Virus record (IMG/VR): IMGVR_UViG_2706796142_000001
Span: 1 to 64,000 of that record
Length of the DNA stretch: 64,000 nt
Direction: 5' to 3' (one strand)
Source: a virus
Lineage: Duplodnaviria > Caudoviricetes
The position numbers and the translations under genes are program-made. Of the stretch, positions 40,638 through 42,052 are shown one piece after another. The notes under the pieces were generated by a model. That model ran no database searches, was not told where the DNA came from, and saw only the letters and a program-made list of their open reading frames with translations. Position 1 is the stretch's first letter. Each line of letters opens with the position of its first letter.

Positions 40638-40838
40638 GTGGAACATATCCCTAAAGAAGAATTGATTGTTGGTAAGCGTTACAAGGGTCGTTGTCGTAAC
40701 GCTACAGAAGCAGTATGGGATGGTAAACAATTCGAGTATACCCGTAGTAAGTTTGGGCATACATTTCAGGAGAAGATCTATTGTCCTGAAGATGATGATG
40801 TTTACGATGTGTTCTATGCTCAACAAGCTATTGACTAG
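40638..40838 (+). CDS. Hypothetical phage protein
   Basis: AGGAG RBS; GRCRNATEAVW...KFG...PEDD..YDVF. Confidence 0.7.
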   Translation: MEHIPKEELIVGKRYKGRCRNATEAVWDGKQFEYTRSKFGHTFQEKIYCPEDDDVYDVFYAQQAID

Positions 40839-40860
40839 CAACATAAGTTGGTAGTAGTAT
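40831..40860 (+). promoter_or_regulatory. Sigma70-like promoter of the tRNA operon
   Basis: TTGACT-18 nt-TAGTAT; tRNA-Asn starts 8 nt after the -10 box. Confidence 0.65.
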
Positions 40861-40867
40861 CATTTTC

Positions 40868-40943
40868 GACGGGTTAGCTCAGTTGGTAGAGCGATTGACT
40901 GTTAATCAATTGGTCATCGGTTCAAATCCGGTACTCGTCGCCA
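40868..40943 (+). tRNA. trnN: tRNA-Asn(GTT)
   Basis: Hand-folded cloverleaf, loop CT-GTT-AA, encoded CCA. Confidence 0.95.
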
Positions 40944-40949
40944 AATTAT

Positions 40950-41026
40950 ATTCCCGTAGACAAATTGGTACAGTCACCACACTTTCACTGTGGAGTTTGT
41001 GGGTTCAAGTCCCATCGGGAATGCCA
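40950..41026 (+). tRNA. trnE: tRNA-Glu(TTC)
   Basis: ATTCCCG/CGGGAAT acceptor, loop CT-TTC-AC, CCA. Confidence 0.93.
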
Positions 41027-41032
41027 AACAAT

Positions 41033-41108
41033 AGTCCTATAGTTCAGTCGGTAGAATACCTCCCTGTCACGGAGAAGGTCACGGGTTCGAGTCCCGTTAG
41101 GACTGCCA
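41033..41108 (+). tRNA. trnD: tRNA-Asp(GTC)
   Basis: AGTCCTA/TAGGACT acceptor, loop CT-GTC-AC, CCA. Confidence 0.93.
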
Positions 41109-41111
41109 AAT

Positions 41112-41187
41112 TGCTTCATAGCTCAGTGGGTAGAGCAACCGCCCGATAAGCGGTAGGTCACTGGTTCAAGTCCAGTTGAAGCAACCA
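41112..41187 (+). tRNA. trnI: tRNA-Ile(GAT), atypical C33
   Basis: TGCTTCA/TGAAGCA acceptor, loop CC-GAT-AA, CCA. Confidence 0.92.
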
Positions 41188-41189
41188 GT

Positions 41190-41339
41190 TTAGAGGTATT
41201 CAAGGTCGTTGGTCATAGTGGTTTTCGGTATAGCCCCGAACAACGTAAAATGATCCCTTGCCTCTAATCAATTCCGATTCGCTACCGGAAGACCTGTCAA
41301 CCAGACACTAACTGGTCAATTGGGTGAGAAGCCCATTCA
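41190..41339 (+). ncRNA. Predicted structured RNA A/B in the tRNA operon
   Basis: Nested stems TTAGAGG/CCTCTAA, CAAGG/CCTTG, CGTTG/CAACG, TTCGG/CCGAA, then three hairpins including TGGG-TGAGAAG-CCCA. Confidence 0.6.
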
Positions 41340-41345
41340 AATTAT

Positions 41346-41440
41346 GGAAGCTACAAACACAAGTAGGTCAGGTATTCCTTGGGGCAGTGTCTGACGTGAA
41401 AGTGGAATTGTGAGTGGTGAGAACCCACGAGCTTCCTGCA
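41346..41440 (+). ncRNA. Predicted tRNA-like structured RNA C
   Basis: 7-bp GGAAGCT/AGCTTCC closing stem plus TGCA end; T-arm-like GTGG-TGAGAAC-CCAC; long arm CACAA/TTGTG, GTCAG/CTGAC. Confidence 0.65.
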
Positions 41441-41445
41441 AATTA

Positions 41446-41527
41446 GGGGGATTAGTCAAGCGGTCGAAGACGGCAGACTGTAAATCTGTTATCCCACACG
41501 GTAGTTCGAATCTATCATCCCCCACCA
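41446..41527 (+). tRNA. trnY: tRNA-Tyr(GTA)
   Basis: GGGGGAT/ATCCCCC acceptor, loop CT-GTA-AA, CCA; unpaired 10-nt variable region. Confidence 0.92.
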
Positions 41528-41531
41528 ATTA

Positions 41532-41608
41532 CGGCATTTAGCTCAGTTTGGCAGAGCATCGGCTTTGGGAGTCGAGGGTCGAAGGTTCAAATCCTTCAGT
41601 GCCGACCA
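41532..41608 (+). tRNA. trnP: tRNA-Pro(TGG)
   Basis: CGGCATT/AGTGCCG acceptor, loop TT-TGG-GA, CCA. Confidence 0.93.
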
Positions 41609-41613
41609 AATTT

Positions 41614-41705
41614 GGAAGATTGGCTGAGTGGCTAAAGGCGTCCGGTTGCTAACCGGAAGGCGGTGTAACAGCTTCCCACTGGTTCGAATCCAGTATCTTC
41701 CTCCA
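41614..41705 (+). tRNA. trnS: tRNA-Ser(GCT)
   Basis: GGAAGAT/ATCTTCC acceptor, loop TT-GCT-AA, long variable arm, CCA. Confidence 0.93.
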
Positions 41706-41710
41706 TCTTC

Positions 41711-41787
41711 AGGTCGTTAGCTCAGTTGGTTAGAGCACCGGACTTTTAATCCGGATGTCATTGGTTCGAGGCCAATACGACCTACCA
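41711..41787 (+). tRNA. trnK: tRNA-Lys(TTT)
   Basis: AGGTCGT/ACGACCT acceptor, loop CT-TTT-AA, CCA. Confidence 0.94.
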
Positions 41788-41789
41788 AA

Positions 41790-41906
41790 TTACAGTCCAG
41801 CTTTCTTCTAAATGAAACTCTATTGTGAGTGACAAATAGATCCCCTTAGGGGTAAGGGAAGTTGATAACAATATGCAGTACCCAACTACTGCTGGACTGT
41901 AACCCA
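41790..41906 (+). ncRNA. Predicted CCA-ended structured RNA D (117 nt)
   Basis: 10-bp TTACAGTCCA/TGGACTGTAA closing stem plus C-CCA; GCAGTA/TACTGC hairpin; branched internal arm. Confidence 0.65.
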
Positions 41907-41987
41907 TTTCGGCTCGCTAATCCGAAAACTTGATGTGCTGCTTAACTGGGCTATCCCCCCATCCAAAAGGTTAACTGCACATCGCCT
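41907..41987 (+). ncRNA. Predicted structured RNA E
   Basis: TTTCGG-CTCGCTAAT-CCGAAA then GATGTGC/GCACATC with TTAAC/GTTAA and TGGG/CCCA. Confidence 0.5.
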
Positions 41988-42016
41988 GCCTCGATTGGTT
42001 CCCGTAAGGAACTACT

Positions 42017-42052
42017 AAACCCCTGCATACACAACTATGCAGGGGTTTTTTT
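42017..42052 (+). terminator. Terminator of the tRNA operon
   Basis: AAACCCCTGCATA-CACAAC-TATGCAGGGGTTT plus T-run. Confidence 0.88.

Follow-up and report, generated by a model that had tools for sequence, protein, structure and literature searches.

Structured RNA modules in the gaps of a phage tRNA operon and a compact motif recurring in phage tRNA arrays

What occupies the two long gaps in an otherwise tightly packed tRNA operon of an Erwinia N4-like phage? The question arises from a 64,000-nucleotide stretch of DNA (positions 1 to 64,000 of IMG/VR virus record IMGVR_UViG_2706796142_000001, class Caudoviricetes), referred to here as the window. A sequence-only reading of the operon had proposed that the gaps hold a new system of tRNA mimics, processed by RNase P and provided with CCA ends, which might act as decoys for defences that target tRNAs. 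Here we describe the operon, compare the gap sequences with those of related and unrelated phages, and weigh the explanations that they allow.

Eight tRNA genes lie on the + strand of the window, with ARAGORN and Rfam in agreement (RF00005 scores of 59-72 bits for the block from Asn to Ile). The first block (40868..41187) contains tRNA-Asn(GUU), starting at 40868, tRNA-Glu(UUC) at 40950, tRNA-Asp(GUC) at 41033, and tRNA-Ile(GAU) at 41112-41187, while the second (41446..41787) contains tRNA-Tyr(GUA), starting at 41446, tRNA-Pro(UGG) at 41532, tRNA-Ser(GCU) at 41614, and tRNA-Lys(UUU) at 41711-41787. The spacers inside the blocks measure 6, 6, 3, 4, 5, and 5 nt, bearing out the earlier description of eight tRNAs separated by 3-6 nt, and the two large gaps that had been put at about 255 and 230 nt prove to be 258 nt (gap 1, 41188-41445) and 229 nt (gap 2, 41788-42016) long. 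The single terminator said to close the operon is also present at 42017..42052 (+), as a 13-bp hairpin stem followed by a U run, and relatives have a terminator of different sequence in the same place. The sigma-70-like promoter fares less well: a site does exist at 40831..40860 (+), overlapping the stop codon of the upstream ORF, but its match at 9 of 12 positions is weak and no better than chance, with one site found against 2.8 expected in shuffles. All of the units described below are encoded on the same strand as the tRNAs, have a single upstream region before them and a single strong terminator after them, and are set apart by tRNA-like spacers. No ORF longer than 63 aa overlaps either gap, and the small frames there are short and unconserved. 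In three RNA-seq runs and one wastewater run, what matched the locus was confined to tRNA-like cross-matches and to contigs from relatives.

The gaps had been described as almost fully base-paired, which overstates their folding. Taken whole, gap 1 is no more stably folded than its shuffles (z -0.79), and of the five units into which the gaps can be divided (A, z -3.3; B, -1.8; C, -1.6; D, -4.0; E, -2.2) only A and D are backed by thermodynamics alone, since B, C, and E do not stand out clearly from shuffles in folding energy. The true support for these predicted RNAs is comparative: each of the five units is retained in relatives, in most cases with compensatory changes of bases, which is not the behavior of degraded spacers lacking covariation. 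Nor do the gaps resemble degenerate tRNAs, as no tRNA model or other Rfam model matches either gap even at E<=10. Identity of the units as tRNAs was accordingly rejected, ARAGORN and RF00005 calling the eight tRNAs and none inside the gaps. A bacterial Y RNA (YrlA, RF02553) was rejected as well, its matches reaching only 15-25 bits against a threshold of 69 bits and all overlapping true tRNAs. Several details reported from the sequence alone stand as given, including the 3' terminal sequences of units A to D, the AAUUAU spacer that precedes C, and the lack of an anticodon-arm mimic in any unit. The ends themselves are UCA in A and B, GCA in C, and CCA in D, with no uniform CCA.

Unit B (41271..41336, +) is a member of a motif found in phage tRNA arrays, an RNA of about 60 nt with three hairpins, a pseudoknot, and a nearly invariant 3' hairpin, GGG-UGAGAAG-CCC. 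Our definition of the motif comprises a P1 hairpin, a 4-bp P2 with which a 3-bp pseudoknot stem is interleaved, a linker of the CAAUU type, the hairpin GGG-UGAGAAG-CCC, and then AU, with the whole on the tRNA strand and an acceptor stem 4-9 nt downstream. In the window, P1 pairs 41272-41276 with 41286-41290 around a 9-nt loop containing UCGCUA, the pseudoknot stem pairs 41296-41298 with 41304-41306, P2 pairs 41300-41303 with 41313-41316, and P3 pairs 41321-41324 with 41332-41335 around the loop UGAGAAG (41325-41331). Thus P2, the pseudoknot, and P3 of the definition are all present, the pseudoknot stem being retained with its middle pair flipped, while P1 is replaced by the UCGCUA-loop hairpin, as is typical of enterobacterial N4-like copies; the acceptor-like stem of unit C begins 9 nt 3' of the motif. 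A covariance model built from compact metagenomic copies of the motif (R1) matches the window at 41280-41344 with 32.5 bits (E 9e-8). Between Johnsonvirus and Yonginvirus, two genera of Erskinevirinae, the core blocks of B are invariant and the flanking sequence has diverged.

An 18-nt word from the core of the motif turns up in the tRNA arrays of phages in 42 distinct contexts, and 37 of these have a tRNA on the same strand 4-9 nt downstream. The carriers include four Schitoviridae lineages, one Ackermannviridae phage, one Pantoea phage, and many freshwater phage contigs. Each array has one copy, whose place within the array varies; among enterobacterial phages the neighbor of B is always tRNA-Tyr, and in other phages a Gly, Leu, Ser, Val, Met, or Pro tRNA follows it. 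About 50 further matches to the word were left out by context, being coding or chance occurrences with no adjacent tRNA. Most of these are coding, corresponding to a conserved protein start in Oscillospiraceae MAGs, with others in Rhizobium, Anaerolineales, and soil contigs; in a single case there are tRNAs, at a distance of 3 kb. A scan of IMG/VR with a 14-nt word returned almost exclusively chance coding matches.

Across the motif copies, the three hairpins are 98% paired, with six pairs changed on both sides, against 25-45% pairing in slid controls, and RNAalifold predicts the same three hairpins. The pseudoknot stem is 100% paired with two covarying pairs. The covariation comes from a small number of clades, which means that the independent events are few. 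N4-type copies have P1 or P2 swapped for other hairpins, and the P3 stem is constant even when left free in the search pattern, with variation limited to loop positions 4, 6, and 7. Such extreme invariance of sequence could have other causes, either a constraint at the DNA level or recent horizontal spread. A further closing stem, P0, joining the 5' flank to the 3' tail of the compact motif, was discarded for its ambiguous register and its competition with P1. Rfam 15 has no match for the motif in the window and eight loci, at the gathering threshold or at E<=10, and the compact form, like the window units, has no match to the tRNA model RF00005. Word and sequence-string searches of the literature found no description of it, the candidate list of a viral RNA survey with 10,006 candidates lying outside the search. 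The B motif family looks new and is apparently uncatalogued.

Units A and D are closed by stems. In A (41188..41270, +), positions 41190-41196 pair with 41261-41267, followed by UCA. Relatives have replaced its sequence and kept the closing stem with other sequences, beginning right after tRNA-Ile and ending right before B, and the A unit of Tellus is found again in the Asp-Ile slot of phiEaP8. Unit D (41792..41906, +) has a closing stem of 10-12 bp (41792-41801 with 41891-41900), an internal conserved hairpin with a GGGG loop at about 41842-41856, and the end AACCCA. Pairing in both its closing stem and its internal hairpin is kept by compensatory changes in phiEaP8 and in the metagenomic N4-like contig L228, and the phiEaP8 copy has a CCA end followed by an AAUU spacer. 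A and D are most likely hairpin-closed cargo RNAs.

Unit C (41346..41440, +) was recognized by its fold and by compensatory changes in L228, whose C-like unit keeps both stems in this way. Its 7-bp acceptor-like stem pairs 41346-41352 with 41430-41436, a hairpin with the loop UGAGAAC occupies the position of a T arm (41414-41428) before the tail U-GCA, and a GUGAAAG element lies at 41396-41402. The 7-bp stem and the hairpin of 4 bp and a 7-nt loop, 1 nt before the 3' strand, follow the pattern of RNA C of phage T4, but the loop is not UUCRANY and the tail is U-GCA in place of a single-stranded N-CCA. C is found only in the window, Rexella, and L228; it has no RF00005 match, and a scan of IMG/VR for the C-type pattern gave none either. 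In other relatives, units in the Tyr-Ser gap of Ea9-2, the Gln-Ile gap of Kuerle, and the Met-Ile gap of UTK0001 combine a 7-bp stem joining their ends with a canonical T arm, and of these Ea9-2 alone has a CCA tail, the other two ending in CAA. Judged by this anatomy, C is most likely a non-decoding tRNA-like RNA.

Unit E (41907..42016, +) is the terminal element. It begins with a P1 hairpin like that of B (41908-41912 with 41922-41926, loop containing UCGCUA), followed by a long hairpin (41932-41938 with 41977-41983) that encloses a GGG-CUAUCNN-CCC hairpin, a GCCUGCCUCG box at 41984-41993, and a 3' hairpin at 41997-42014. In N4-like Klebsiella phages of the genus Efbeekayvirus, orthologues close the tRNA operon on its 3' side, directly ahead of the terminator; Erwinia phage MIF8 has a reduced E directly ahead of a terminator, and Kuerle a partial one. 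Neither B nor E has a closing acceptor stem or a match to a tRNA model, so the proposal that the units are tRNA mimics finds some support in the anatomy of C and fails for these two.

The arrays are mosaic even among close relatives: some have tRNA-Pro or unit C where others lack it, and A has been exchanged for other sequence. Modules are also common to unrelated phages, namely Erwinia N4-like phages, the Pantoea phage TacPo2, and Kosakonia T4-like phages, and the unit of Kc304 is a chimera of two modules. Comparison of the arrays shows RNAs of phage tRNA operons that appear to be modular, under selection, and exchanged between unrelated phage families.

The best explanation, to which we assign a probability of roughly 0.6, is that the gaps encode five conserved RNA modules, co-transcribed with the tRNAs and processed by the host, with B serving as a leader or partner for the adjacent tRNA. 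The modules would be transcribed together with the eight tRNAs, kept by selection, and cut from the polycistronic precursor by the tRNA-processing machinery of the host. RNase P would cleave where the following tRNA or tRNA-like unit begins, enzymes of the RNase E type would cut in the A/U-rich spacers, and 3' exonucleases would trim to the terminal hairpins, leaving small RNAs that would accumulate stably in the manner of T4 RNAs C and D. A difficulty for this scheme is that neither B nor E is closed by an acceptor-like stem: of their ends, RNase P could set the 3' side of B alone, since E is followed by the terminator. B would then act as a structured 5' element in the maturation of the adjacent tRNA or in its handling by a universally conserved host factor, perhaps through its T-loop-like or GNRA-like hairpin, and E would be the 3'-terminal element of the operon.

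A bolder idea, which we regard as a tentative and rather unlikely suggestion, is that B is a free-standing RNA device acting on tRNAs, either a minimal double T-loop platform that docks the elbow of the neighboring tRNA or pre-tRNA or a new class of small ribozyme that processes the array. The P3 loop U-G-A-G-A-A-G, closed by G-C, fits a T-loop in its U1, purine 4, A5, and two spacer nucleotides, a match of pattern alone. A second T-loop-like pentamer, UGAAA, is present in the L1 loop of the compact motif, and unit C carries both elements; the P1 loop of B in the window is without the second. The same loops also allow a reading as GNRA tetraloops with U-A or U-G closing pairs. Interdigitated T-loops occur in RNase P, T-box Stem I, and the L1 stalk (PMC4810234), and a double T-loop platform would dock the elbow as in RNase P, T-box leaders, and the L1 stalk. 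If the suggestion is true, phages carry their own RNA cofactor for tRNA handling, and C, D, and E would also belong to a set of RNA tools that phage families exchange.

The decoy proposal, in which look-alikes processed by RNase P and ending in CCA would soak up anticodon nucleases, tRNA-sensing defences, or synthetases, is improbable. It draws on the acceptor-like stem and T-arm-position hairpin of C, on the canonical T arms (and, in Ea9-2, the CCA end) of RNAs in the equivalent slots of relatives, and on the constant placement of enterobacterial B beside tRNA-Tyr, a known defence target. Yet no unit mimics an anticodon arm or reaches any tRNA model, B and E have no acceptor stems, and the other tRNAs that B precedes elsewhere mean that it is not tied to one targeted tRNA.

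We hold it similarly improbable that the B motif is a small self-cleaving ribozyme of a new kind that cuts the tRNA array. HDV-like ribozymes are marked by a nested double pseudoknot (P1-P1.1-P2-P3-P4) with a catalytic C in J4/2, and theta ribozymes by cleavage at their 5' end, directly after a tRNA. In favor of a ribozyme, the B motif has a length of about 60 nt, a pseudoknot, and highly conserved loop and junction nucleotides, and it is phage-specific and tRNA-adjacent. HDV-like theta ribozymes that adjoin tRNAs of gut Caudoviricetes, with a proposed role in tRNA processing, set a precedent (Kienbeck et al. 2024, PMC10879173). Both are small structured RNAs within a few nucleotides of phage tRNA genes, but the theta ribozymes follow the tRNA and have the nested HDV topology and catalytic C, whereas B precedes it and consists of three serial hairpins and a small H-type pseudoknot. 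An HDV-like or theta identity was rejected on these helices, which are the ones supported by covariation, and on the absence of an Rfam HDV-type match; the interval between the P1 strands, only 10 nt, leaves no room for HDV P2 and P3. The motif matches no Rfam ribozyme family of any type, it lies anywhere from 4 to 9 nt before the tRNA, a spacing too variable for it to make the mature end, and the replacement of P1 or P2 in N4-type copies would hardly be tolerable in a catalytic core.

That the gaps are decayed tRNA genes or recombination scars without function of their own is quite unlikely: the mosaic arrays, with units gained and lost between close relatives, and the chimeric unit of Kc304 would fit such relics, but the stems are preserved by compensatory change, the B core is invariant in unrelated phages at strictly one copy per array, and degenerate tRNA models do not match. 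Least credible is a DNA-level element, the invariant 18-20 bp of B being a site for protein binding, recombination, or a homing endonuclease, carried along with tRNA genes; the invariance of P3 beyond what structure needs, the horizontal spread of the module, and the homing endonuclease genes of phage tRNA clusters (segB in T4) speak for it, but the adjoining P1, P2, and pseudoknot covary like RNA helices, strand and spacing relative to tRNAs are fixed, and no endonuclease gene lies nearby in the window.

The motif of unit B also has a wider relevance. Sharply defined, compact, and widespread, it is an unusually tractable handle on the stable RNAs of phage tRNA operons, amenable to study in cultured Erwinia and Salmonella phages. 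That phages infecting widely different hosts have conserved it suggests an interaction with something universal, such as RNase P, tRNA-modifying enzymes, the ribosome, or the tRNAs themselves.

Among known phage RNAs, GOLLD, ROOL, and other large RNAs beside phage or prophage tRNA genes are also structured, cluster with tRNA genes, and are without an assigned function (10.1101/2024.12.08.627333). They are several hundred nt long and form multimeric cages, whereas the units of the window measure 65-115 nt and are unrelated in sequence; the Rfam models of GOLLD and ROOL have no match in the window.

The closest likeness is to phage T4. Stable non-tRNA RNAs of the RNA C and D type have been known from phage tRNA operons since the 1970s, and to speak of a new system, as the sequence-only reading did, is therefore too strong. 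In the T4 annotation, RNA C (species 1, 119 nt) and RNA D (species 2, 139 nt) follow tRNA-Arg at the operon end, 1-6 nt apart. Both are made from the end of the tRNA operon, and their function is still unassigned (PMC3014915, PMC9697503). The T4 RNAs occupy the end of their operon, in contrast to A-C, which lie within the array, and no sequence homology is detectable between the T4 RNAs and the window units; a BLAST search with B found no T4-like phage. Membership of B and E in the RNA D family, which is marked by a conserved 5' domain and a 3' block of the T-even RNAs, was rejected, as a model (R2) of the 5' domain from five T-even phages, a UCGCUA-loop hairpin followed by AAGUCGUCGG, had no match to B or E in 813 kb of related loci with filters on or in 34 kb of the window with filters off. 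The 5' hairpin of RNA D, of 5 bp with UCGCUA in its loop, is like P1 of B and E, a likeness that amounts to a shared 10-mer in a similar hairpin context and is a resemblance only. RNA C has a canonical T arm and acceptor-like ends, as do tRNA-like units of relatives, and unit C of the window is like it in its acceptor-like stem and its hairpin in T-arm position. In kind, the predicted gap modules resemble the stable RNAs of T4.

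In the window, an operon of eight tRNA genes on the plus strand, separated by spacers of 3-6 nt and called alike by ARAGORN and Rfam, contains two gaps, one of 258 nt after tRNA-Ile (gap 1, 41188-41445) and one of 229 nt after tRNA-Lys (gap 2, 41788-42016), the latter followed directly by a terminator consisting of a 13-bp hairpin and a U run. A scan of both gaps for ORFs gave none of note, and neither gap matches any Rfam model, that for tRNA included, even at E<=10, which argues against the possibility, raised by an earlier sequence-only reading, that they hold degenerate tRNAs. 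The tRNA-like unit ends quoted in that reading are all present as written. Its promoter at 40831-40860 matches 9/12 positions, no better than chance, and gap 1, described as almost fully paired, folds as a whole like shuffled sequence (z -0.79). Taken singly, only units A (z -3.3) and D (-4.0) stand out from their shuffles, with B at -1.8, C at -1.6 and E at -2.2.

The region is about 95% identical in the N4-like phages Rexella, Ea9-2 and Tellus of E. amylovora (Johnsonvirus; Schitoviridae, Erskinevirinae), in whose records the tRNAs are its sole annotation except in Tellus, where the gaps bear a few short 'hypothetical protein' calls. These public calls of 30-43 aa cover units A and D/E (Tellus locus L003, 977-1166 and 1857-1988) and are most likely spurious calls on RNA genes. 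The annotations of Rexella and Fifi450 give the gene directly downstream of the operon (42079 onward, plus strand) as a RyR/Ca2+-release-channel domain protein; it follows the operon in Johnsonvirus (Rexella) and Yonginvirus (Fifi450) alike.

When the Ile-Tyr gap was aligned among Johnsonvirus and Yonginvirus phages, the position of unit A held unrelated sequence, and unit B (41271-41336) showed two invariant blocks: a hairpin with a UCGCUA-containing loop followed by GACCU, and the region around a GGG-UGAGAAG-CCC hairpin (P3). The 3' block recurs in three other phages, 8 nt ahead of tRNA-Tyr: the Salmonella N4-like phage UTK0001, the Salmonella Ackermannviridae phage CRW-SP2 and the 65-kb Pantoea phage TacPo2. 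In exact-word scans of IMG/VR, JGI metagenomes and 185,579 species genomes, an 18-nt B core turned up in many contigs, and its genomic context separates these cleanly into two classes. In 42 distinct contexts the core lies within a same-strand tRNA array, and in 37 of these a tRNA called by ARAGORN begins 4-9 nt downstream; the others are Rexella (with the window) and metagenomic contig L228, each with the tRNA-like unit C in between, L182 and two truncated loci. The motif occurs once per array, at no fixed rank, and precedes tRNAs of eight different specificities. The remaining matches, about 50, are coding or chance occurrences with no adjacent tRNA. Since the species genomes yielded a single real match, a MAG contig with 22 tRNAs, the motif looks phage-specific by its distribution. 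Many gut Clostridia (L136-L157, L200 and L203; Oscillospiraceae and Eubacteriales MAGs) also carry the word on the opposite strand, where a coding gene has its conserved start (MGFSPN...); this match is unrelated to the RNA motif and a trap for word-based searches. Five freshwater phage contigs (L014, L185, L194, L214 and L016) carry arrays of 12-36 tRNA genes with many more same-strand gaps in two size ranges (70-160 and 250-1800 nt), some of which could contain further RNA genes; in several, the B motif is directly preceded by a stretch of 534-1096 nt.

B is compact in most metagenomic copies, at about 60 nt. Aligned without gaps, 21 distinct compact copies (A4) support three hairpins that are 98.3% paired, against 25-45% with slid partners, and in which six pairs have changed on both sides; RNAalifold predicts the same three. 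A mutual-information scan pointed to two additional elements: an H-type pseudoknot, formed by 3 bp that link the P1-P2 junction to the P2 loop (100% paired, two pairs covarying), and an isolated long-range pair that joins the 5' flank to the P1 loop (C-G 11, A-U 6, U-G 2, U-A 1). As the sequences fall into few clades, the covariation in the family represents a small number of independent events. The P3 stem varies in no copy. Leaving P3 free in the search pattern revealed differences only at loop positions 4 and 7, and the aligned copy L172 differs at loop position 6 too. A model built from compact copies alone (R1) matches B of the window at 32.5 bits (E 9e-8), aligning P2 and P3, and by inspection the pseudoknot is kept (41296-41298 with 41304-41306), its middle pair being U-A instead of A-U. 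Enterobacterial copies are long forms, with 5' hairpins added or swapped.

The slot of unit A (41188-41270) holds a different sequence in every relative, with a closing stem that runs from directly after tRNA-Ile to directly before B. Unit D (41792-41906) has a 10-bp closing stem and an internal GGGG-loop hairpin, and compensatory changes keep both paired in L228 and in phiEaP8, where the unit ends in CCA. Unit E (41907-42016) shares the UCGCUA-loop hairpin with B and adds a long variable hairpin around GGG-CUAUCNN-CCC and a GCCUGCCUCG box; its orthologues close the tRNA operon of Klebsiella Efbeekayvirus phages, and a reduced form is found in Erwinia phage MIF8. Unit C (41346-41440) has its ends joined by a 7-bp stem, with a 4-bp hairpin (loop UGAGAAC) one nucleotide ahead of the 3' strand, followed by U-GCA; compensatory changes preserve both stems in the C-like unit of L228. 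Wastewater metagenome contigs join 41336 to 41446, so natural relatives without unit C circulate, as in Ea9-2.

Further tRNA-like RNAs, in which an aberrant core is combined with an acceptor stem, canonical T arm and CCA or CAA tail, occupy the Tyr-Ser gap of Ea9-2 and Tellus, the Gln-Ile gap of Kuerle and the Met-Ile gap of UTK0001. Unannotated tRNA-like RNAs whose acceptor stem has 7-8 bp, with a canonical GUUCGAnnC-type T arm, a CCA or CAA end and aberrant cores of 50-100 nt, lie at L002:1220-1316, L005:1486-1600, L012:1338-1431 and L009:1103-1255 and 1262-1400 of the comparison set; one annotator labelled the Kuerle-type unit 'tRNA-Cys(aca), 115 nt'. In the Kosakonia T4-like phage Kc304 (L265:509-640), the 5' half of C (about 45 nt) is fused, after tRNA-Asp, directly to the unit found between Tyr and Ser in Ea9-2, a natural chimera indicating recombination of modules between Schitoviridae and Straboviridae. 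B in its Ea9-2 form is near-identical in TacPo2, tRNA-Tyr included, and together with the chimera this indicates that these RNA modules move between phage families.

The operon thus carries conserved, structured modules on the same strand and at the spacing of tRNAs, which RNase P, RNase E and exonucleases would excise into stable RNAs; B may act in concert with the tRNA next to it on the 3' side, by way of a universally conserved partner. We put the probability of this general reading at roughly 0.6, and that of any specific function far lower.

Among known RNAs, the T4 tRNA operon ends in tRNA-Arg, RNA D and RNA C, spaced by 1-6 nt, and the roles of the two RNAs are still not known (PMC3014915, PMC9697503). 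RNA C matches the anatomy of the tRNA-like units of Ea9-2/Tellus, Kuerle and UTK0001. At its 5' end RNA D has a 5-bp hairpin with UCGCUA in the loop. This is its most conserved part among T-even phages and is similar to P1 in units B and E; a model of this 5' domain (R2) matches neither unit, and we therefore report resemblance rather than membership. Both the P3 loop and, in compact copies, the loop of P1 fit the T-loop pentamer pattern and can be read equally as GNRA tetraloops, so that this likeness is a lead only; interdigitated T-loops dock the tRNA elbow in RNase P, T-box leaders and the L1 stalk (PMC4810234). Theta (HDV-like) ribozymes, although different in fold from the B family, adjoin phage tRNAs (PMC10879173) and are the nearest functional precedent.
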